Source of the DNA: a phage
Reading direction: 5' to 3' (one strand)
Length of the DNA: 64,000 nt
Assembly: GCA_026066175.1 (NCBI GenBank)
Contig: GCA_026066175.1_4721.1
Shown here: positions 6,481 through 62,195 of the stretch, piece by piece
How the letters are laid out: every line of letters starts with the position of its first letter
How positions within the stretch are numbered: the first letter of the stretch is position 1
Notes under the pieces: model-generated
What the model was told of the DNA's origin: nothing
What the model saw: only the letters and a program-made list of their open reading frames with translations
Databases searched by the model: none
Position numbers and translations under genes: made by a program

Positions 6481-6960
6481 TTAGCCTTTCAGCAGCTCAG
6501 CTGCATATGCACTGATGTTATCGCGAATATGCTTAACCTGAGTTGTTGGGAAGGATTTCTTATACGCGGTAGTCAGACGTCCGTAAACCTGTTTCTTCTC
6601 GTTAGAGCCGAAACCAACTTCAGCGCTACGTTGAACGGTTGCTGATACAACGTCTTTACCCAGCGGCAGCGTAACAGAAACAACGTCAACCTGCTTGTTG
6701 TCTGCCATGAACTGCGCACCAACGCGACCCACTGCCAGGCCATGAGCCAGACCGATGTCTGTTGTCAGTTTCTGTGCTTTTTCCAGGATTTCTTTTTCTT
6801 CTGGTGTTACCAGCGTACCAATGAAATCACTGCCCAGCTTCTGGCTACCTGATTCGTCCAGTTTGAGACCAGCAGCGATTTTATCAGAAAGAGCCTGAAC
6901 TTCCGGACGTACGTTAGAAGTGGTTTCAGTCGCTACGGTGGTTTCTACTGCTTCAGACAT
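6481..6960 (-). CDS. hypothetical protein
   Basis: ORF track 6481..6993 trimmed to ATG (MSEAVETT...) with GGAG SD; lies ~120 nt downstream of a TATATTAC-type motif on its strand. Confidence 0.65.
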   Translation of the reverse strand: MSEAVETTVATETTSNVRPEVQALSDKIAAGLKLDESGSQKLGSDFIGTLVTPEEKEILEKAQKLTTDIGLAHGLAVGRVGAQFMADNKQVDVVSVTLPLGKDVVSATVQRSAEVGFGSNEKKQVYGRLTTAYKKSFPTTQVKHIRDNISAYAAELLKG

Positions 6961-7080: not shown

Positions 7081-7095
7081 TAGGTAATATAGACC
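7081..7095 (-). promoter_or_regulatory. candidate phage early promoter motif (GGTCTATATTACCTA on the transcribed strand)
   Basis: Plus-strand TAGGTAATATAGACC; one of five copies of GTAATATAG(C/T)C, all placed so that TATATTAC reads toward a downstream minus-strand gene start. Confidence 0.45.
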
Positions 7096-7904: not shown

Positions 7905-7994
7905 CTACTCAACAAAAGGTTCGTGTTCGACATCACGTGTCATGTATCCGTAGAATAATGAGTCCTGGTAAGCTTTTACATCAAAAGACGGCAT
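7905..7994 (-). CDS. possible small ORF (29 aa, MPSFDVKAYQDSLFYGYMTRDVEHEPFVE)
   Basis: Found by manual translation; ATG preceded by GAGGAGG SD at ~10 nt spacing; too short for the ORF track. Confidence 0.2.
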   Translation of the reverse strand: MPSFDVKAYQDSLFYGYMTRDVEHEPFVE

Positions 7995-12278: not shown

Positions 12279-13409
12279 TTATTTGGCTTCATTAAAATAA
12301 ATATCAACGGCACGTTCCGTTGCGTAGAGAAGACCCAGATTCACGGTCCCTACCACTTCCGGTGAACCGATGATACGGTTAGCGATACTGGTGCCACTGA
12401 AGATAGCATCAAGGGTGTGCCCGTCTTCGGTTTTGTTCACACCATGACCCACGGAAGAGACAACGGATTTCGCCTGTGCGGCGAAGGTACCTTTATCCCC
12501 CATTCCCGCACCAAGGTCGTAACGCATGAAAATACGGATCGCGATCTGGTTCTCACCTAACGGATTACCGTCTATTCTCACGTTACTGTTATTGATGCGT
12601 CCCGTTGTTGCTTCGTTGAGTTTCAGTTCCTTAACACGTTTAGCTCGCGCCTTATCAGCGTCACCCACAAGTGCTGCCATGGTTTCGCTCATGTCTTCAA
12701 TCTGAGCGCGGTACAACACATCGATCTGTACGACTTCACCATGCACGTCAGCGCGTGGGTTATACTGACTCATACGGCGTAACGCTTCAACCGCTTCCTG
12801 ACTTTCATCGCTCAGATCGGTTGCAATAGGTTCTTCCAGTGTTGCCAGGATCGTCCGAGGTTCAACATGATCGCCGATTTTCACCAAACCACGAATGTTG
12901 AGATGAGCGTCAACAATGAGCGTACGGCTCTTAATCGATGGGGTTACGAGACGATCGGCAAGATTGTCGAAGATATACGAACTGTCCTCGTGCGTTTCTG
13001 GAATATCCAGAATACCAACCAGAGACAACACGCCTGCGCGCCAAACAACCTGACCTGGGTTCCACCAATCCCGTTTAAAATAAAGACGATGGAAAACCAC
13101 TACATCCTGGTCCTTAACGCGATCCCCGACTTTATAATCGGTAATGAGATCGTGAGGATAATACTTACCTGGTCCTTTCCCGATTATCGTACCGAGTTGG
13201 AAAACCTCTTCCCCTAATTCTGGATCGTCGTATTGTATCGTAAGCGCTGTTTTGGTGACCTTCTTCACAACACCATCGCCTTGAGCAGCTGCTGCGAAGA
13301 GTTTACCAACACGATGCGCGATAACAGTCTCGCCACCAGTGCGCCATGGTTGTACGTCGTAACCTTCAGCGGCTATCATGCGGTTGTGTTGGATGCCTAT
13401 AAACACCAA
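12279..13409 (-). CDS. multisubunit RNA polymerase beta-like subunit, central fragment (possible downstream exon)
   Basis: By-eye alignment to bacterial RpoB: FIGIQHNRMIAA resembles the conserved ANRALMG segment; IRIFMRYDLGAGMGDKGTFAAQAKSVV resembles [26 protein letters not shown]. Track start is TTG with no SD and the frame is open for 8 codons upstream, consistent with an exon. Not database-verified. Confidence 0.5.
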   Translation of the reverse strand: MVFIGIQHNRMIAAEGYDVQPWRTGGETVIAHRVGKLFAAAAQGDGVVKKVTKTALTIQYDDPELGEEVFQLGTIIGKGPGKYYPHDLITDYKVGDRVKDQDVVVFHRLYFKRDWWNPGQVVWRAGVLSLVGILDIPETHEDSSYIFDNLADRLVTPSIKSRTLIVDAHLNIRGLVKIGDHVEPRTILATLEEPIATDLSDESQEAVEALRRMSQYNPRADVHGEVVQIDVLYRAQIEDMSETMAALVGDADKARAKRVKELKLNEATTGRINNSNVRIDGNPLGENQIAIRIFMRYDLGAGMGDKGTFAAQAKSVVSSVGHGVNKTEDGHTLDAIFSGTSIANRIIGSPEVVGTVNLGLLYATERAVDIYFNEAK

Positions 13410-13733
13410 TCTCTTGGGCGAATTTAGTTCTTATTCAGTATTAACATACCGTTACCGAAATAAGACTGAGATTAGATTGTTCAGATAAGGTCGTTAATCT
13501 TATCCCGGAGGTGATGATAGGCACATCACCTCCCGCTTACGTTCTCACGCAAGAGCAGACTATATCACATCTCGTTTCAAACGGTGCTTCTTCAGCACCT
13601 CAACGAGAGTTCACTTCTTCCCAGCGCATCCAGCGCCATTCTCTTATCCAAGGAGAATGCCTCACTCGAGGGGTACAGGGGGATGAATCCCTTAGTCGTT
13701 GAACCGTCACCCTAGAACGTTTCACAACGATCC

Positions 13734-14945
13734 TTAGGCGATTGGCTGCGGATTACCCTTGGCCTGCGGACCACGAACTTTTGTCGCGGTCAACTCTTCA
13801 TTTTTAAAGCCTGCTTCACGAGCAATACGTCTCGCTTCTCGCACGTCTAACGTTTCCGTTTCCGCTTTGGCTGAAGGCAGCATTGGGCGTCCCCGCAATT
13901 CAATGAATCTCGTCCATACGTCACCGTATAAACGGACCCGCTCTTTGTAAACAGAATAGTAGATATAACGTTTTCCGTCAGGAAATTTAGTCATTCCATC
14001 CGACTTTAAACGGTAATTGAGTAACGTAGTAGATATACCCATTTCTTCAGCGCAATCGACGGCCGAAAGGTACAACAGAGGTACATCATTTTCAGGAATG
14101 ACGACAATAGCACGTTTGTTGGTTGTCTTCTCCAACTCCAGGATACTATCTTCGACTTCTCGCCATGGCGTCTCATCAGTAACCCACTTAACTTGATAAC
14201 AACCATTAACGACAGGTTGGTTCTTGTCGTTAACGTACATCGACGCAGTGGATAACTTAACACCAATGTGATTCGCGAATTCAGTCAATGATTCGAAAAG
14301 ATGAATCTCTTTTGTTATCGTTGACCTTGCAATCACACCCTTACTTCCCGTATCCGTCAACGTTGCTAACTCGTATTTGGTGGGAATACGCCATGGTTCA
14401 TCGCCGTAATCTTTGCGGTACTGCTTACGTTCAGGAAACGCTCGCTGTTTGCCTCTATAGACACGATGATGAATGAAGTCGATATTCACACCAAGATCGC
14501 GTGCCGCTTCCGTCATGGATGGATATCTGGTTACAACACCGGTATCAACATCACGAACCTGAATAGGTTTACCGTAGGCAGCAATTGAACGTTTACGCAT
14601 GTTCATAATGCGAGCATGCTGATTGTTCTCTTTCTGCGTAACCCATTCAAGATTGTCATTCTCGGCGTTACCGTCGGGATCAAGGTAGTTATTAAGTCTG
14701 TTGCCGTCCTTGTGGTTCACATGGAGCAAATGCGCATCATCGATGTTACGGAACGTTAACATTAGAAGCCTGTGCATGGAACGGTAAACCAATGTTCCAT
14801 CGTGACCTCGAAACGAATAACGATAATACCCAGCAATGATGGTGGGCAAATATTCAAACTTCGATTCCTTGTTACGCAATGTTCCATCTATGGATATCTC
14901 CAGGAACGGGAATTCCGGTACGGTCTTAAATACCTTCTCACTCAT
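13734..14945 (-). CDS. HNH homing endonuclease with NUMOD-like DNA-binding repeats
   Basis: HVNHKDGNRLNN...NLEWVTQKENNQHA HNH motif near the N-terminus; three helix-turn-helix-like repeats (TEAARDLGV, TEFANHIGV, VDCAEEMGI). AAGAGGAA SD before the ATG and a TATATTAC-type motif ~45 nt upstream. Confidence 0.8.
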   Translation of the reverse strand: MSEKVFKTVPEFPFLEISIDGTLRNKESKFEYLPTIIAGYYRYSFRGHDGTLVYRSMHRLLMLTFRNIDDAHLLHVNHKDGNRLNNYLDPDGNAENDNLEWVTQKENNQHARIMNMRKRSIAAYGKPIQVRDVDTGVVTRYPSMTEAARDLGVNIDFIHHRVYRGKQRAFPERKQYRKDYGDEPWRIPTKYELATLTDTGSKGVIARSTITKEIHLFESLTEFANHIGVKLSTASMYVNDKNQPVVNGCYQVKWVTDETPWREVEDSILELEKTTNKRAIVVIPENDVPLLYLSAVDCAEEMGISTTLLNYRLKSDGMTKFPDGKRYIYYSVYKERVRLYGDVWTRFIELRGRPMLPSAKAETETLDVREARRIAREAGFKNEELTATKVRGPQAKGNPQPIA

Positions 14946-14985
14946 TGACTATATTCCTCTTGTGCAGTGAAACTAACTACACTTT

Positions 14986-14997
14986 CGTAATATAGCC
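14986..14997 (-). promoter_or_regulatory. candidate early promoter motif upstream of the HNH gene (GGCTATATTACG on the transcribed strand)
   Basis: Plus-strand CGTAATATAGCC in the 75-nt gap between the beta-like ORF stop and the HNH start. Confidence 0.4.
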
Positions 14998-15020
14998 TTA
15001 ATTCTGTTTACATTGAAGCC

Positions 15021-18000
15021 TTAATCATCTCTATCAGCAGCAGGTACTGCAAGTGCTGATGTACTCATTATTGACGAGCTACCATCCGTTTTCTCGTCGT
15101 AGGGTTTCGTTTCACCGTATACAGACACAATGTTTGCGTTAGGTGCGAGGTAAGCAGAAATACCTACGTCCCCACTATCCTTCGTACCTTCGGATACAAC
15201 ACCAATGTCCGACTTGTCGTACTCACGATCGCGTGCGCGTCGAAGCGATGTTTTCGAACGACCCCCGATACCGGTCATCGTTGCTTCTTCACCCTGCTTG
15301 ATATCCAGCATCGGGTTGGTTTCATCGATGACGATAGAAGCACTGTCGTCAAGGATTTGGTTCCAAACGCTCACCGGACTGATTGAGATCTTCTGTCGGT
15401 TGCCTTGGCTGCTGTTCTCGTTTTGACGAATAGCACCAACCAGATCCTTATACACCAACTCAGCGAACTTATCGTACGTTTTGAAGCGCTGGTAGTTCAC
15501 GTCGTTCGTGTTAGGTGCCCAATCGTCCAGAAGCAGTTCAACCGCACGTAATAACAACATGGCGAAATCAGTCGGTTCGCCCATGTTCTGTAATAACGTA
15601 CGACTTACCGGGTCGACGAAAAGACGCTCCATGAGTTCAAGTTCGCGAAGATGACGAACCTTAAGACCTGCACCATCGACAACGTTAAAATAGATATCCC
15701 GATTGTCGAAAGCACCTCGAGCGTAACCAATGTAGTTACGGTATTCGTTGAATCCGCCTAACAACAATGTCGTCATTCGATCATCTTTACTGAAGATCAA
15801 ACTTTCATCGTCGAAGCTCACCGCGAATTCATCCGATGCTAATCCCATACGAGAACCACGAGGTACCGTACGGTAGTTCGCTTTAAGATGTTCTAATAAC
15901 GGTGTAAGACCACCTAAGTAACTTAACACAACACCAACCGGAATACGTACGCCCATGAACTCAAGGTCAGCGGCTTCGATGGGCATCTTCGCGGCATTGA
16001 TACCGAAGAAATCAGGGAACGTTCCAACCGGCGTTGGGGTTTGATTCGGTTCGTAAACGTATAACTGATTCTGACCATCCACCGCCAGGAATTCGCCGTT
16101 GGTGTTTTTGGCGAACGTTAAGAATCCACCCGCCAGCTGTTCGGTGAATAAATCTTCACCGATGTGTTCCGGCAACGTTTTGATATCGAGGCGTATGTCC
16201 CAATCCGCAAATTGGATTTGGGTGTAGTTACGTGCAAGCACCGCGAAGTAATACGGAACTTTGACAGACGGATCAAAGACGTTACCACGTTTTAAGGTGG
16301 TTAAGGGCGAGGTTTTATCGTAATACATCGCTGTGAGTTGACGTGTTAACCAACGACCAGCATTATTAACCACGCGTTCTGAACGCTTAACGAACACCTT
16401 ACCGTAGGCGGTACTCAACGCAACTTCGGATGACGATACCTTTCTGATTGGTTTATCGACACGTTGTTTACGCATTCGATATTTAATGCCGTTAACGACA
16501 TAAATGCCGTCCTTACGAACCTTCGGTAACATCACCGGGAACGTGGTCGGAACACCGCCTACCGGAGCCAGCTTGATCGTGATGACCTGGTAATCACCCA
16601 TCACGTCAACAACATCTTCAACTTTATATCCGGTAACAGGATAGCCCGCTTGCTGCACCGCCACAACGGCTGCTGCGATGTCCTTTTGCATGACATGTTC
16701 GACGTAGTGTTTATCCCATACGGCAAGCGTCGATTTGCACAAGCTCTTATCAACGATAACGTCCGCTTCCGGCATCACCTTCTCAGGTGCTAATTTCGCG
16801 GCTTTTGGTTTAACCTCAACGTATTCAGCAAGCGTGAGTCCAGAACCGTCAGGTGCTTCAATTTCATGAATCGCGTCAGCGTTACGCATCGCTGCTTTAT
16901 ATTGAACGCCGCTTAATTGACCAGCATCCGCGAGGTCGCTTGCACGTACCAGCACTGCATCGGATAACGACTGAATATATTCACCGTGCGTTTTCGGTAA
17001 CGTTGCCGCATCGAAGACATCAACTTTTTCTTCCGGCATGTCATCGTTGACAACCTCAAAGAGATCATCGGTGATGTCTTGATCTTCGTCCGGTTGAAAA
17101 TCGGGCTGAACTTCAACGCCAGGGACTTCACGAACATCTTCAAACGCACGTTCAACAACCGCGTTCCATGCTTCAGCGTCGTCATCTTCATCCGATCCTC
17201 CGATCAACTCGCTTTCCAGTTCATCGGGGTCAAGAACGGTATCAAGGTCCTCACCGTTAGGAAGCACGACATCACGTTCATCGTACTCCGCATCGGGACT
17301 GTCTGCGAGAATATCACGCTCTTGACGAAGAACCTGCTCCTCTTCTTGTTTCTGTTCTTCTTCATTGGCGCTCTGCGACCACAGACGGGTTACCGCCATC
17401 ATCCAACGACGCTGGAACGTTTCAAGCGTTGTCTTATCAAGTTCCTCGCCTTCCTTCGCTAAACCCGAACGCCATTCTTCCATTAAACCAAGATTCAGAG
17501 TAAAGAAATAGACGCCGTCCGTAAATACAACGTTAAGCTTATCCAGCGAAGCACGGTCCAATGATACCATCGTGCTGTTCTCACGATCGACACCTAACCA
17601 ACGGAAGAAGTCAAAGAACGACAGCTCCTCGGAGGTGGCAAAATTCATGAGGTTATTACGGGTTGGGGCTTGTTGTGTCGTACGCATCAACGATATCTTC
17701 GGTAACGTCGACGGGATACGGAATAACAAGAACTGCTGACGGTCGCTTTGTTGGGCGATCTCGTTTGCTTGCGTCCAAATCGTTTTACGCACGTTGAACC
17801 ATTCATCATACCAACGGGTCAGTGTCGGACGATAGATGTACATGTGGTTAAGATGCGCATAGTTAGCCACGATCTGGGCGTTGATGTTCTTCTCAACCTT
17901 GCTAAGATCGGTGACCAAACGAAAACGACGATGCGATGCACGGTAATCCAGTTTCGCACGCGGTAGCTGGAATCGCTGATCGCGTCGAGGTGCGCCTTGC

Positions 18001-18230
18001 TTGGTTGCAAGATCATCCGCGAATGATATCCAAAGCTGGGCGCTTTCTTTGCTCAGCATGTATTCGTTTTCAGGAGGACCGATTAACGAAGGATCGGTTG
18101 CTGTATAATGATAAACCGCATAACGCGGCAGCTGCAAAAGCTGCACCAAACGCAATCTAGGTGATAATAACTCTTGATAACGTCGTACACCGAATTGTCT
18201 GTAGTAATCAAGGTATTTAAGTTTTGCCAT
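15021..18230 (-). CDS. multisubunit RNA polymerase beta-like subunit, N-terminal fragment (possible upstream exon; ORF tail may be intron-encoded)
   Basis: 1069 aa ORF starting 4 nt after the beta-prime fragment stop. C-terminal RSKTSLRRARDREYDKSDIGVVSEGTKDSGDVGISAYLAPNANIVSVYGETKPYDEKTDG resembles the RpoB segment ...[44 protein letters not shown]. Contains a strongly acidic insertion around 17030-17380. By-eye comparison only. Confidence 0.5.
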   Translation of the reverse strand: MAKLKYLDYYRQFGVRRYQELLSPRLRLVQLLQLPRYAVYHYTATDPSLIGPPENEYMLSKESAQLWISFADDLATKQGAPRRDQRFQLPRAKLDYRASHRRFRLVTDLSKVEKNINAQIVANYAHLNHMYIYRPTLTRWYDEWFNVRKTIWTQANEIAQQSDRQQFLLFRIPSTLPKISLMRTTQQAPTRNNLMNFATSEELSFFDFFRWLGVDRENSTMVSLDRASLDKLNVVFTDGVYFFTLNLGLMEEWRSGLAKEGEELDKTTLETFQRRWMMAVTRLWSQSANEEEQKQEEEQVLRQERDILADSPDAEYDERDVVLPNGEDLDTVLDPDELESELIGGSDEDDDAEAWNAVVERAFEDVREVPGVEVQPDFQPDEDQDITDDLFEVVNDDMPEEKVDVFDAATLPKTHGEYIQSLSDAVLVRASDLADAGQLSGVQYKAAMRNADAIHEIEAPDGSGLTLAEYVEVKPKAAKLAPEKVMPEADVIVDKSLCKSTLAVWDKHYVEHVMQKDIAAAVVAVQQAGYPVTGYKVEDVVDVMGDYQVITIKLAPVGGVPTTFPVMLPKVRKDGIYVVNGIKYRMRKQRVDKPIRKVSSSEVALSTAYGKVFVKRSERVVNNAGRWLTRQLTAMYYDKTSPLTTLKRGNVFDPSVKVPYYFAVLARNYTQIQFADWDIRLDIKTLPEHIGEDLFTEQLAGGFLTFAKNTNGEFLAVDGQNQLYVYEPNQTPTPVGTFPDFFGINAAKMPIEAADLEFMGVRIPVGVVLSYLGGLTPLLEHLKANYRTVPRGSRMGLASDEFAVSFDDESLIFSKDDRMTTLLLGGFNEYRNYIGYARGAFDNRDIYFNVVDGAGLKVRHLRELELMERLFVDPVSRTLLQNMGEPTDFAMLLLRAVELLLDDWAPNTNDVNYQRFKTYDKFAELVYKDLVGAIRQNENSSQGNRQKISISPVSVWNQILDDSASIVIDETNPMLDIKQGEEATMTGIGGRSKTSLRRARDREYDKSDIGVVSEGTKDSGDVGISAYLAPNANIVSVYGETKPYDEKTDGSSSIMSTSALAVPAADRDD

Positions 18231-53828: not shown

Positions 53829-54242
53829 TCAAATTCCTTCTTTCAAAATCTCATTAAGGCCGTCTGCAACCGCGTCCAAATGGGCATCCATATCCGTTAC
53901 GGTGCCAGCGGTAACTGTCCAGACGTGCCGTATTAATGTCTCACCATTCGTACATTTTACCATTTCCATCGCCAACTTTGTTTGTCCTGACGATGGTGAG
54001 ATCTCATTGCTCCGCCAAAACGCAGCCTCGAGTAATGTTTTACCTAACGCTGTACACACAAAAGTAAATTCTACTTGACCAATACCTACCACCGAAGCGG
54101 ATAACGGTTGGATATGTTCGCGCAGCTTATCATCTTCACGTAGGAGCAGCAGTGTACGATGTAAGTGTGTACGGTGGGTAACAATAGCGTCGTAATGACC
54201 GATGCGTACATCGGCTACTGATTCAGGCCAGTTAATTTTCAT
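53829..54242 (-). CDS. small paralog family A protein (137 aa), unknown function
   Basis: See shared motif F-x-F-x-x-T-x-x-GK-x-[LI]-[LI]-x-x-x-[FV]-W; starts 2 nt after the upstream gene. Confidence 0.55.
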   Translation of the reverse strand: MKINWPESVADVRIGHYDAIVTHRTHLHRTLLLLREDDKLREHIQPLSASVVGIGQVEFTFVCTALGKTLLEAAFWRSNEISPSSGQTKLAMEMVKCTNGETLIRHVWTVTAGTVTDMDAHLDAVADGLNEILKEGI

Positions 54243-54758: not shown

Positions 54759-55229
54759 TTATAACACGCCCCAAGCCATATTGGGTACAGGCTCGTTACG
54801 TTCGATGTAATACATCAAGCGTTCTTTAAGTTTGGTTAACGCCTCAGCAACGATGTTCTCCATGGCAATCACCTTTCCAATGTAATCCATGGTATCCTGC
54901 CACGTAAACCATTCGACGGTATTGACGATGTAAAGGGTTTCATCGTCGTCGGTCATGACCTTGGCATTTTCACGATGATCGCGGGTCGCGTATAACGGTG
55001 TTTTTAGATTCGCTCTGATACGTACCCAGAGCTTCTCCAGGAAATCGCTCGGTTGACTATCTGTCGTGATGATAAGTTCACTCCGTACTGAACGCTCTCC
55101 ACGCTTTTCAATAACAAGTAAACCATCGTAAGTGATGTTCATCAAGTTACGAAGGTCATCATTGCTATTCCAGTCTTTTACAACAGCAGGAAGTTGGCTA
55201 TTGTACTCTTCAGGTAATCTCTTAAGCAT
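54759..55229 (-). CDS. hypothetical protein
   Basis: 156 aa ORF; 8-nt overlap with the upstream gene. Confidence 0.55.
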   Translation of the reverse strand: MLKRLPEEYNSQLPAVVKDWNSNDDLRNLMNITYDGLLVIEKRGERSVRSELIITTDSQPSDFLEKLWVRIRANLKTPLYATRDHRENAKVMTDDDETLYIVNTVEWFTWQDTMDYIGKVIAMENIVAEALTKLKERLMYYIERNEPVPNMAWGVL

Positions 55230-59523: not shown

Positions 59524-59607
59524 GGATAAAGTTCCTTGTTTTCACGTTGTTTGATTAACGTACTGATTTCTATTTGACAGAAGACGAACATTGTACGCAT
59601 CTATCAC

Positions 59608-59622
59608 GTAAGTAATATAGCC
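59608..59622 (-). promoter_or_regulatory. candidate early promoter motif (GGCTATATTACTTAC on the transcribed strand)
   Basis: Plus-strand GTAAGTAATATAGCC, ~90 nt upstream of the start at 59523; 20-mer TAAGTAATATAGCCGTGAAA is identical to 44343-44362. Confidence 0.45.
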
Positions 59623-59734
59623 GTGAAAGGATTTGTATTACAGAAAGGATATTTGTTTTCTAAGAAGGGATGGTTACCAGGAAGGAGGTTATCGATAGGT
59701 GTATTTCAAGGAAGGTTTAAGAGGATAGGTATTG

Positions 59735-59905
59735 TTGTTTTGTTTATCTTAGTTTGTCTATGTATTCGTTTAATGTGTTATCTTAGTTTTAATGATCTTT
59801 TCAAAAGTGTTATCATGTTTATCTTAGGTTATATTTTAATTGCTTTAAGTTATTTGTTTTATCTATCTTGTTATCTTGTTTAAGTTGTTAATTGCTTATC
59901 TTCAA
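59735..59905. repeat. cluster of at least 8 direct repeats of TTATCTT(A/G) in an AT-rich noncoding region
   Basis: Copies read at ~59745, 59779, 59805, 59819, 59860, 59865, 59872, 59894; embedded in a ~800 nt region with no credible ORF. Confidence 0.5.
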
Positions 59906-60335
59906 AACAATGGATAACATGTGTTTACTACAACTTCAGTAACACATGTCATCTGTGCATTACACTACGTTACATGCTTATAATCAGATAACTCTAAAAA
60001 ACCATTTGTGATACTCTTCTTCACGTTGTTCATCAGAGTATCTCGTCTACACTTGCTTCGCGCGTATACGACATCACCGTTAACGCTAACGCTACGCTTA
60101 TAGCTTATAACTCTAAGGATAAAAACATAAACTCGCTTCGCTCGTTTAGTTTTTCTTTTTCTTAGAGTTATCCTGTTGCTCGTCTCTAAAGGACTTCGCT
60201 CCTCCCCCGTCCCCCGAAGGGGCCGAGGTCGTGGAAATTTTACTTTCCAAATACATTTACAACGTCTGTAAACTTTTACCGACACATACCTAATCTTATA
60301 TTTAAATATTAGAAAAAGAGAAAATACGAACATAA

Positions 60336-60367
60336 CCCTCCTCCTTCCCTGATGGGTTGGAGGAGGG
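60336..60367. terminator. GC-rich hairpin (CCCTCCTCC-TTCCCTGATGGGTT-GGAGGAGGG)
   Basis: Perfect 9-bp arms, immediately downstream of the stop of minus-strand gene 60385..61278. Confidence 0.55.
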
Positions 60368-60384
60368 GATAACAGTCTATTTAA

Positions 60385-61278
60385 TTAATCGGAAGTGTTA
60401 TAACCGAATACTGCTTTACCGTAGGTGTGAGTACCATCACTTAGTGACAATACCAATACGTGGTTATACGCATCGTTAACACCCTTGTCGGTAGAATCGG
60501 TGGTAACACCGTTGTAGACAAAGGTAGCTGATTGCAGATTGGTTTTCAGTTCATTGATGATATCATCACTTACACCAGTCTGCTCTTTAATCAGAGTAGT
60601 CAGGTTACCTGCTAAGCTTGCGTCGAGATTTACTTCGTTGCCAGTAATAGCTTGTAAACCTGAAGCGTAAGTACTGAAGTCTAACGGATAGGTTAACAGA
60701 CGTGCTGACGTTTTGGTACCATTGCCTTCATCAACGTAGGTTAAGTTACCCAGGTTGGTAACCTTGATGATGTTAGACAGATCCAGCGTTGTGTTATAAA
60801 CTTTAACTTGAACAGAACCATACCAAGCCAACGAATCTTCTTTGGCTTCCAGGGTAACGGTTTGGATACCTGACTGATCAAAGGTAACGGGATTAGATAA
60901 CGTTTCAGCTTTGATGTCTTTTGTTTTATCCAGGAACTTCTCGCCGGAAGGCGTAACCATACCGTAGCGTTGAGCTACGAGGTCGACCACGTCACCGATG
61001 GTGGTGTTTGCTTCAACACTAACGCGCACCGCGATCTTCTGGAACCATTTAGCCAGATCCAGACGATGATAGGTGACATCGCGGGTATTGAAGTACGGTG
61101 TACCATCACCCGGACTGAGTGTTAATGTTGCTGCACTATCAGAATCGCTTTTGGATTTAAGAACGTATTTGAGATCAGTGTATTTGAAACTGGCTCCCGT
61201 ATCGGCGTTAAGCTGGTTGATCTCATCAACGATAAGTTGCCACGGTGTTTTCAAAGTAAGTGATACTCGACTTGTCAT
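60385..61278 (-). CDS. hypothetical protein; distant paralog of 61420..61962
   Basis: 297 aa ORF with GAGGTAAAAA SD; segment GIQTVTLEAKEDSLAWYGSVQVKV resembles VGQVTLNAIENGLVYTGTLQVAL in the divergent neighbour. Confidence 0.6.
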   Translation of the reverse strand: MTSRVSLTLKTPWQLIVDEINQLNADTGASFKYTDLKYVLKSKSDSDSAATLTLSPGDGTPYFNTRDVTYHRLDLAKWFQKIAVRVSVEANTTIGDVVDLVAQRYGMVTPSGEKFLDKTKDIKAETLSNPVTFDQSGIQTVTLEAKEDSLAWYGSVQVKVYNTTLDLSNIIKVTNLGNLTYVDEGNGTKTSARLLTYPLDFSTYASGLQAITGNEVNLDASLAGNLTTLIKEQTGVSDDIINELKTNLQSATFVYNGVTTDSTDKGVNDAYNHVLVLSLSDGTHTYGKAVFGYNTSD

Positions 61279-61419
61279 TTTTTACCTCGATGGTTGTTAC
61301 ATCACTCTCAAAAGATGTAAATGTTTACAGAAAATAATATATTTTATATTTAATGTAAATGATATGGAGAACGACTCCGAATCTCCTTTTCGACCATCAA
61401 AATCAGAGGACACACAGTC

Positions 61420-61962
61420 ATGGCCTTAGACTTTAACAAAGCAGCGAAATCCCTTCTGCTCGATCTTATCAACACCAAAGCAACTCGCACACTGACCGAA
61501 GAAGAACTGCAGTTCGGTACTCCGGGGGCATCTTCCGAACATTCTAAGAACACCGTTATTCAGCTGGATGCTGCGGATGAAGCAGAAAACCTGCAGGGTA
61601 CTCAGCAGTTCTACTACGATCGTCTGGCTCTATCTGACGTTTTCGCTGATGTAACCGGCGATGTTACTTTCGAACTGCCGCACGGTACTGACAGCATTCA
61701 GGCTTCTGAGCTGGTAAGCAAGCTGGTCACCAAATTCGGCCTGGCTTCCCTGACCGGTGAAATCAAAGAAGAAACCTTCCAGCTGTCTGCAGGTACTGTT
61801 GGTCAGGTAACTCTGAATGCGATCGAGAACGGCCTGGTATATACCGGTACTCTGCAGGTTGCCCTGACCTATGCAGCAGCACCGAAAGACGAACTGGCAA
61901 CCGTTCTGGCGAATAACGTAGCTGAAGGTTTCGTGAAACCTGAAGTAGCTGTCGTTGGCTAA
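61420..61962 (+). CDS. hypothetical protein with strongly biased host-optimal-like codon usage (likely very highly expressed)
   Basis: 180 aa ORF with GAGGA SD; almost exclusive use of CTG, GGT, ACC, CCG, GAA, AAA, CGT codons, unlike neighbouring genes. Confidence 0.65.
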   Translation: MALDFNKAAKSLLLDLINTKATRTLTEEELQFGTPGASSEHSKNTVIQLDAADEAENLQGTQQFYYDRLALSDVFADVTGDVTFELPHGTDSIQASELVSKLVTKFGLASLTGEIKEETFQLSAGTVGQVTLNAIENGLVYTGTLQVALTYAAAPKDELATVLANNVAEGFVKPEVAVVG

Positions 61963-62161
61963 TAAGCACGTAGAGCAATAGTATGGGTTTTGTACAGCTC
62001 GGCTATTGCTCTTCTACAATTTGGTTGTAACAATCTGCGTGGTTGCACGCTTATCTTTCTCATTGAACGCTTCGTATGATGCGTGGTGTTGAAAGGGTTG
62101 TGGATCTCCTCAAGCGGCCAGGGACCCAGACCAACCTGAATAAACACAAACACATGTTAAG

Positions 62162-62195
62162 CCCCTCCTCATCCGTTATTGGGTGGGGAGGGGTC
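62162..62195. terminator. GC-rich hairpin (CCCCTCC...GGAGGGG)
   Basis: Inverted repeat ~200 nt downstream of 61420..61962 and ~60 nt from the stop of the convergent endolysin gene. Confidence 0.4.

Follow-up and report, generated by a model that had tools for sequence, protein, structure and literature searches.

The closest described counterpart of the locus studied here, two divergently transcribed genes in a 64,000-nt stretch of phage DNA (GenBank assembly GCA_026066175.1, contig GCA_026066175.1_4721.1; the whole stretch is called the window below), is found in Escherichia phage vB_EcoM_Goslar (Goslar), a nucleus-forming jumbo phage of E. coli (Chimalliviridae). Goslar virions were analyzed by cryo-electron microscopy (cryo-EM) and quantitative mass spectrometry in a preprint of 22 April 2026 (10.64898/2026.04.21.720040). 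It counts gp23 (~2140 copies) and gp22 (~580 copies) among the most abundant virion proteins and explicitly calls them DUF7941 paralogs, where gp23 lacks the C-terminal domain of gp22. For gp58 ~2150 copies are given and gp214 is likewise a high-copy protein. The preprint also reports AlphaFold predictions of head-to-tail oligomers and filaments of purified gp22 in negative-stain EM, and a 'DUF7941 fibre cloud' on the peripheral baseplate is proposed by the authors. The family is reported from chimalliviruses only, with paralogs that carry carbohydrate-binding, glycosidase and leucine-rich repeat (LRR) domains. Codon usage, promoters and allelic variation of gp23 are not discussed in the sections consulted. 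The core finding for this locus, two paralogs of which one is extremely highly expressed, is already published for Goslar (April 2026); the promoter and operator candidates and the hypervariability of gp23 described below go beyond the literature that we found and are modest new leads.

The second reference system is phiKZ. Its DUF7941 protein gp127 has been modelled, like gp126, in the outer peripheral baseplate (PDB 9XQD), where it occurs once per star lobe and caps the gp139 band of each lobe. The late promoter of phiKZ is 5'-TATG-3' (T-3ATG+1), with the G as +1, and serves the non-virion RNA polymerase; in vitro none of the four bases can be dispensed with, and the sequence after them plays a part as well (PMC4666361, PMC7598289). 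The conserved intrinsic terminator consists of a polypyrimidine/polypurine hairpin followed by TTAT (PMC10914365). The middle-promoter motif of phiKZ is 5'-AAanTTACc-3', centred at about -24, and the early promoters of chimalliviruses, used by the virion RNA polymerase, carry an AT-rich TATATTAC-type motif ~10 nt before the start. According to the literature, bioinformatic prediction of middle and late chimallivirus promoters is not possible.

The divergent gene pair and its codon usage

The 2-kb region around the gene pair had a sole match, Goslar, with 88.8% nucleotide identity across the full length. Fifty open reading frames (ORFs) of the window are collinear with Goslar orthologs, including the tail sheath, the tail tube, virion RNA polymerase subunits and the protease. 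By this collinearity the genome is of the kind to which DUF7941 proteins belong, and judged from its sequence the window is a Goslar-like chimallivirus. The coordinates given in the initial annotation are exact: a 297-aa protein is encoded on the minus strand (60385..61278) and a 180-aa protein on the plus strand (61420..61962). The former is about 85% identical to Goslar gp22 (15% divergence at the protein level) and the latter 92.2% identical to Goslar gp023 at the amino acid level; both Goslar counterparts, gp022 and gp023, are annotated as 'virion structural protein'. The Goslar locus has the same gene order, divergent orientation, flanking endolysin, Pfam family and class of codon adaptation. 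It differs in that it belongs to a separate strain and in that a palindrome between the genes, perfect with 6+6 nt in the window, matches in 5/6 positions only.

That the two proteins are distant paralogs in divergent orientation, as had been proposed, was confirmed with several methods. BLASTP aligned them over 101 residues with E=2e-4, and hhalign of a gp23-family profile (19 sequences) against gp22 gave 95.2% probability and E=2.6e-8. Both exceed the curated gathering threshold of 27 bits for Pfam PF25613 (DUF7941), with 175.3 bits (E=2.3e-51) for the 297-aa and 75.2 bits (E=7.7e-21) for the 180-aa protein, and both share PHROGs 1037 and 2935, which are families of virion structural proteins. 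Profile methods were needed, because single-sequence phmmer searches of the two proteins against each other or against other window ORFs gave no match. On this sequence evidence the gp22 and gp23 orthologs are paralogs. The C-terminal motif that they had been said to share is present in both, but in the 297-aa protein it lies mid-protein (residues ~138-160), where it forms the last strands of a common N-terminal domain of ~170 residues. The motif understates the homology, as by sequence the whole N-terminal domain is shared. The gp22 ortholog is a full-length DUF7941 protein with N-terminal domain, linker and C-terminal domain, whereas the gp23 ortholog combines the N-terminal domain with a C-terminal tail and lacks the C-terminal domain of gp22.

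The AlphaFold2 model of the gp23 ortholog (predicted local distance difference test 89.6) has the N-terminal domain fold of the solved phiKZ gp127. Foldseek matched it to this protein (PDB 9XQD) with E=1.4e-7, probability 1.00 and template modelling (TM) scores of 0.62/0.73, and nothing else in the PDB was found at E<=0.001. The gp22 ortholog was matched to gp127 also by phmmer (PDB 9xqd_0, 'PHIKZ127', E=8.4e-9), with sequence similarity over the linker and the C-terminal domain. However, the identity to gp127 is only 16%, the gp23 ortholog has no C-terminal domain, and, assuming six equivalent lobes, a virion would have ~6 copies of gp127, compared to ~2000 expected for the gp23 ortholog.

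The codons of highly expressed phage and host genes are under translational selection, which is the basis of the codon adaptation index (CAI) framework of Sharp and Li. Using weights from 17 ribosomal-protein genes of E. coli K-12 (2275 codons), the gp23 ortholog has a CAI of 0.719 and ranks first among the 65 window ORFs (mean 0.394, standard deviation 0.097). When the same protein was re-encoded with the average codon usage of the window, the CAI was 0.400 +/- 0.029, which corresponds to z=11.0 for the real gene. Its codon counts (CTG 18/23, GGT+GGC 12/13, ACC+ACT 18/19, GAA 13/15, CAG 9/9) agree with the preferences noted from the sequence, and the gene is an outlier. The description as being unlike nearly all other genes holds for its first rank, but the gene is not unique, with the ORF at 6481-6960 (0.670), the tail tube (0.601), the endolysin (0.581) and the sheath (0.566) coming next. 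The CAI of the gp22 ortholog is 0.502 (z=4.5).

The same pattern is found in Goslar, where among 241 ORFs the capsid protein gp41 (0.823), gp58 (0.814), gp214 (0.734), gp23 (0.733) and chimallin (0.729) are separated by a gap from the sixth value (0.613), and gp22 is ninth. This top group coincides with the proteins in greatest demand, because gp58 and gp214 are high-copy proteins too. The extreme expression suggested for the gp23 ortholog was a correct call, as it belongs to the CAI class of capsid protein, gp58, gp214 and chimallin, and its Goslar ortholog reaches the ~2140 copies per virion measured by mass spectrometry. As in translational selection in general, the highest CAI is found for proteins needed in the highest copy number; nothing in this is unusual and the correlation is imperfect, since Goslar gp158, gp208 and gp7 are abundant in virions and have ordinary CAI values. 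The codon analysis provides evidence, independent of mass spectrometry, that gp23 is synthesized in amounts like those of the capsid protein.

The gene pair is kept in metagenomic relatives, in which a DUF7941 gene of 297-299 aa on the minus strand and one of 176-177 aa on the plus strand are followed by a GH108 endolysin. The gp23 homolog of the relative L016, in spite of an identity of just 51%, has a CAI of 0.709; in the same relative gp22 has 0.480 and the gene upstream 0.336. The codon bias is therefore old and maintained across divergent alleles, which argues for translational selection and not for recent transfer, and the demand for gp23 is old as well.

We assign a probability of about 80% to the reading that the locus holds two separate transcription units of one gene each, arranged back to back and coding for high-copy DUF7941 proteins, with codons driven by expression and with the cis-elements proposed below. 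According to this reading, DUF7941 filaments would hang from the peripheral baseplate, and the 180-aa subunit would be needed at roughly capsid-protein numbers, ~2000 per virion, so that long-term translational selection would have driven the codons of gp23 to the E. coli optimum. The genes of the capsid protein, gp58, gp214 and chimallin would be under the same codon selection. Both genes would be transcribed by the phage's own RNA polymerase, and each would close with its own hairpin terminator. Identity, paralogy, fold, codon bias and the conservation of the cis-elements are shown by the present analysis, the copy numbers and the gp22 filaments come from published work on the Goslar proteins, and start sites, promoter class and the part played by the palindrome are inferred.

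Candidate control elements in the spacer

As had been described, the genes are separated by an AT-rich spacer of ~140 nt, exactly 141 nt with 31.9% GC (61279..61419). It is 95% identical to the Goslar spacer, which exceeds the identity of the surrounding coding DNA. Ribosome-binding sites can be read from the sequence on both sides: AGAGGA (61405..61410, plus strand) 9 nt before the ATG of the gp23 ortholog, and GAGG (61285..61288, minus strand) 6 nt before the ATG of the gp22 ortholog (61278-61276). In an alignment of six genomes (window, Goslar, an IMG/VR relative, L016, L017 and L019) two islands of the spacer are invariant, and the AT-rich DNA between them drifts and has indels.

Island 1, TATGG[AG]GAA[CT]GACTCCGA.TCTCCT.TTCGA.CATC (61363-61398), starts with a TATG (61363..61366, plus strand) that is invariant in 6/6 genomes and is a candidate core of a phiKZ-type late promoter, with G61366 as predicted start for the gp23 ortholog. 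The conserved downstream block is G[AG]GAA[CT]GACTCCGA.TCTCCT.TTCGA.CATC (61366..61398, plus strand); the ~33 nt after the putative +1 are ~90% conserved, though the encoded protein is only ~50% identical. The block begins with a 5'-terminal stem-loop, GGAG-AACGA-CUCC (61366-61378, plus strand), in which the sole stem change, an A to G in L016 and L017, still allows pairing, as G-U. Stems of 4 bp or more were found exactly at +1 after 9 of 75 upstream TATGs in Goslar, compared to 4.8% of control positions (p=0.009), and seven of these nine sites precede gp23, the capsid protein, sheath, gp214, gp88, gp7 and gp161.

With an invariant TATG 54 nt before the gp23 ATG and a conserved downstream block, the island is similar to the late promoters of phiKZ. 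The difference is the stem-loop at +1 that is added at strong late genes of the Goslar clade, of which we found no description for phiKZ. We infer that gp23 has a putative late promoter and a leader with a 5'-terminal hairpin, where the transcript would most likely start at the G of TATG (61366), giving a conserved leader of ~54 nt with the small stem-loop first. From general knowledge on mRNA decay in E. coli one could speculate that the 5' hairpin stabilizes the gp23 mRNA. Sites in Goslar with TATG and an immediate 4-5-bp stem-loop at +1, located 33-86 nt before the ATG, were found for gp7, gp214, gp23, gp41, gp88, gp161, sheath and gp156, and are concentrated at the genes of the highest-copy virion proteins.

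Island 2, GATGTAA-NNN-TTTACA (61314-61329), is also invariant. It overlaps the inverted repeat TGTAAA-TG-TTTACA, TGTAAATGTTTACA (61316..61329), which had been called a perfect palindrome and is actually an inverted repeat of 6+2+6 nt whose central TG breaks the palindrome. The perfect 6+6 form is present only in the window and L019, and the core GTAA-N4-TTAC (61317-61328, reading CTGTAAACATTTAC on the minus strand, towards gp22) is invariant in 6/6 genomes. Goslar has 16 GTAA-N4-TTAC sites, of which 9 are located in the 8.3% of non-coding DNA (p=1.2e-6), the strongest intergenic enrichment among all 256 possible palindromes of this format (4-nt arms, N4 gap). The intergenic sites are found upstream of capsid, sheath and gp144, in the divergent regions gp29/gp30 and chimallin/gp245, and elsewhere; a further site is located upstream of gp213, at window position 7968. 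The flanks are asymmetric, with CWGTAAA on one side, and oriented by these flanks 6/9 sites point to a gene start at a distance of 45-75 nt, whereas the other three sit between convergent gene ends and face no gene. A second exact copy of CTGTAAAC-W-TTTAC (60266..60279, plus strand), inverted relative to the spacer copy, lies beyond the gp22 terminator and is invariant in four genomes.

The gp22 ortholog would be served by this island, as it lies 45 nt downstream of the conserved CTGTAAAC-N-TTTAC, whose palindromic GTAA-N4-TTAC recurs in intergenic DNA genome-wide. The element may correspond to the TTAC-containing middle-promoter motif of phiKZ, as AAA-NN-TTTAC also has a TTAC core, is intergenic, and at 6/9 Goslar sites faces a gene start. 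In difference to that motif, AAACATTTAC is palindromic, its internal spacing is unlike AAanTTACc, and three of the Goslar sites face no gene. TATG with its conserved leader and GTAA-N4-TTAC are testable candidates for the poorly defined late/middle promoter and operator determinants of chimalliviruses.

Several results weigh against the reading of two independent, highly expressed units with these control elements. On the promoter side, our literature search found no mapped transcription start in any Goslar-like phage, and over all Goslar genes the upstream regions show no TATG enrichment (82 observed, 80 expected) and just a slight positional peak at 30-60 nt. There is no TATG preceding gp22, and in RNA folding the putative hairpins of the 5' untranslated regions (5'UTRs) were no more stable than shuffles. 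The palindrome is only loosely similar to AAanTTACc, with different spacing, and the distance from its centre to TATG varies among relatives (42.5, 43.5 and 51.5 nt). On the codon side, synonymous divergence could not be used as an independent test of selection, owing to genome mosaicism: the four-fold-site divergence of the window from Goslar ranges from 0.03 to 0.63 by region, and it is not correlated with CAI (rho=0.11). On the virion side, the preprint (10.64898/2026.04.21.720040) only proposes the location of the fibre cloud and saw no DUF7941 density in the Goslar maps, and its authors point out that nucleus fragments and PhuZ filaments were also in the sample.

The idea that palindrome and TATG are a constant distance apart was considered and rejected. 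The distance is 42.5 nt at three Goslar promoters, but 43.5 and 51.5 nt in orthologous spacers, and the hairpin-bearing TATG at the Goslar sheath gene is only 17.5 nt away. The low folding energy of the whole spacer (z=-3.5) was also discarded, since it is largely caused by pairing of the two opposed ribosome-binding regions in an RNA that is absent under divergent transcription.

The palindromes had been called operator-like, and as an alternative they could be true operators, at which a dimeric phage DNA-binding protein binds GTAA-N4-TTAC, and perhaps TTACA/TGTAA half-sites, to co-regulate the divergent genes together with other late or middle genes. The motif shows the dyad symmetry and the recurrence of a bacterial-type operator. 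Its core is invariant in six genomes amid drifting AT-rich DNA, and the intergenic preference in Goslar includes positions upstream of capsid, sheath, gp29/gp30 and chimallin/gp245. Extra TTAC/GTAA half-sites are located nearby in every relative in changing arrangement, and the variable distance to TATG is more in line with a factor site than with a core promoter element. However, no candidate binding protein was identified, where none was sought; the asymmetric flanks and the orientation of 6/9 sites towards a gene start 45-75 nt away are promoter-like, three sites lie between convergent gene ends, and the position relative to the promoter or putative start is not fixed. What stands of the operator claim is the conserved and intergenically enriched core; a second repeat to which it had been extended, TTACATC/GATGTAA, is not conserved beyond close relatives. 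We regard true operators as an unlikely alternative to the reading preferred here.

It is improbable that the repeats are merely incidental to AT-rich DNA, with no regulatory role, and that only ordinary promoters invisible in the sequence matter. In favour of such an explanation is the second repeat, whose arms TTACATC (61297-61303) and GATGTAA (61314-61320) are present as annotated, forming a TTACATC-N10-GATGTAA inverted repeat (61297..61320) that could be a 5'UTR hairpin of gp22 if transcribed. A 7-nt arm is reached in 23% of dinucleotide shuffles, although five arms of at least 6 nt compare to 1.3 expected (p=0.04). The window, Goslar and the IMG/VR relative have the repeat, L019 has it almost intact, and in L016 and L017 it is replaced by GTAACGTTAC, TTACA-N5-TGTAA. 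Its RNA fold has z=-0.46, as the z-scores of the RNA hairpins are near 0 in general, and the repeat is statistically unexceptional. Similarly, a second direct copy of ATGTAAATG (61353..61361, plus strand) in the variable AT-rich middle of the spacer is not conserved in the IMG/VR relative, L016 and L017, and CTGTAAACWTTTAC with up to two mismatches is not above chance in the window. An incidental origin is contradicted by the GTAA-N4-TTAC core and the TATG block, which are invariant though gp23 of the relatives is ~50% identical, and by the genome-wide intergenic enrichment of the core, the strongest of 256 comparable palindromes.

Scans with Rfam and for tRNAs gave no matches at the locus. 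A sigma-70 promoter scan was at chance level (5 hits, 3.5 expected), which is irrelevant if the host polymerase is not used. The early-promoter motif of the Goslar clade, TTTCACGGCTATATTACTTAnGTGA, is absent from the spacer, though it is present at 5 sites in the window, and this would fit non-early expression of the two genes.

Virion role and variability of the gp23 ortholog

In the reading preferred here the gp23 ortholog is a subunit of virion filaments, where filaments themselves have been shown for Goslar gp22 only. In the family alignment the N-terminal helix and the C-terminal tail LATVLANNVAxGFxKP are conserved and the centre is variable, as would be expected for head-to-tail contacts, and this would indirectly support filament assembly. 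Alternatively, the 180-aa protein could be made in huge amounts without being a virion fibre, as an intracellular filament, scaffold or decoy that co-purifies with virions. This would agree with the lack of DUF7941 density and with the conceded nucleus fragments and PhuZ filaments in the preparation, and codon bias only reports the amount of synthesis, as chimallin, which is not a virion protein, has the same CAI. Against it stand the fold, equal to that of phiKZ gp127 in the outer peripheral baseplate, the carbohydrate-binding, glycosidase and LRR domains reported for paralogs in the preprint, the labelling of relatives as virion structural proteins by the PHROG families, and a hypervariable surface that suits an exposed virion component. 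We consider a non-fibre role to be rather improbable.

The variability of gp23 is localized. Compared with three relatives, the endolysin is 94-96%, gp22 81-94% and gp23 only 47-56% identical. The difference is concentrated in a central segment of the gp23 ortholog, residues ~81-140 (61660..61839, plus strand), as defined by the family alignment and the comparison with L016: here the identity to the L016 allele is 20-35%, compared to 65-75% for the termini, and blastn similarity is lost at 61652-61831. In the gp23-family alignment 5/60 columns are invariant or nearly invariant in the centre, versus 17-18/40 at each end. The pattern suggests constant polymerization interfaces combined with a variable exposed surface, and it would fit a role of the filament in host interaction without proving one. 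The hypervariability bears on the proposed host-recognition role of DUF7941 filaments.

Recent horizontal acquisition of a host-adapted gene, which had been offered as a second explanation of the codon bias, can practically be dismissed: the gene is moron-like in being monocistronic with its own promoter and terminator, and its centre differs sharply between close relatives, but the divergent gp22-gp23-endolysin arrangement is kept with its orientation and neighbours in all relatives examined at 47-56% identity of gp23, both divergent alleles have a high CAI (0.719 and 0.709), DUF7941 is chimallivirus-only according to the preprint with phiKZ gp127 as the only structural relative, the GC content of 0.50 is not atypical for the phage, and the bias is common to other high-copy phage genes.

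More local hypervariable spots in this mosaic genome are found at 53829-54242 and 54759-55229, where small genes are ~42-48% identical to Goslar and their neighbours >95%.

Terminators, an adjacent non-coding block and further motifs

Both genes are followed by stem-loop terminators. The one after the gp23 ortholog (61970..62013, plus strand) has -22.2 kcal/mol and z=-3.84. The terminator after the gp22 ortholog (60336..60368, minus strand), CCCCUCCUCC...GGAGGAGGG followed by UUAUGU, has -24.4 kcal/mol and z=-3.79, and is of the phiKZ type, with a GC-rich polypyrimidine/polypurine hairpin followed by TTAT. Its inner hairpin TTCCC-TGAT-GGGTT is present in Goslar and L016 as the reverse complement, AACCC-NNNN-GGGAA, with the outer stem unchanged, as if, judged from the sequence, the tip of the hairpin had been flipped. 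In Goslar, the k-mers over-represented between genes were mainly such terminator hairpins and poly-A/T, and not promoters. They are dominated by the polypyrimidine/polypurine hairpins CCTCCTCC...GGAGGAGG and AGGGAAGG, represented in the window for example at 60336-60368 and 62160-62195. By their sequence, these hairpins are a conserved terminator family like that of phiKZ.

Beyond the gp22 terminator, a non-coding block of ~400 nt (59890-60290, part of a gene-free stretch at 59524-60384) shows ~98-100% identity among the window, Goslar, L016 and L017, at a four-fold-site divergence of 14-35% in nearby genes and ~50% protein identity of gp23. It contains several long hairpins in which variation is confined to the loops, apart from one 2-bp compensatory swap, and a C(UUCG)G tetraloop hairpin on the minus strand (~60209-60224). 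No Rfam match was found for the block, whose role could be that of a structured RNA or, at the DNA level, of a cis-acting element. It is adjoined by a T-rich, strand-asymmetric stretch (59735-59905) with repeated TTATCTT(A/G) and 12-nt copies at 59744, 59778 and 59819, which has the same sequence in L016 and a different one in Goslar. A GC-skew signal for an origin beside the block was rejected, as the skew only tracks gene orientation.

As a tentative and still doubtful combination, GTAA-N4-TTAC and TATG with the stem-loop at +1 might be the first sequence-definable promoter or regulator signature of non-early chimallivirus genes, the hypervariable centre of gp23 might form an exchangeable surface for host recognition or defence evasion on a conserved polymerization scaffold, and the ~400-nt block might be part of the same module, either as structured RNA or as DNA acting in cis.

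The ~24-nt motif TTTCACGGCTATATTACTTAnGTGA is located in the window at 7084, 14987, 31238, 44347 and 59612 (minus strand in each case). Goslar has it at 7 non-coding sites, among them the upstream regions of chimallin and gp214. Because the motif contains the phiKZ early-promoter core TATATTAC, it is probably the early promoter of the virion RNA polymerase in the Goslar clade. Finally, the region 12279-18230 contains ORFs of 366, 403 and 1069 aa for which no Goslar ORF covers at least 80% of the length, and the matching Goslar region carries a large RNA-polymerase beta-like gene, a group I intron and an endonuclease-like gene. The content of introns and homing endonucleases probably differs between the window strain and Goslar.

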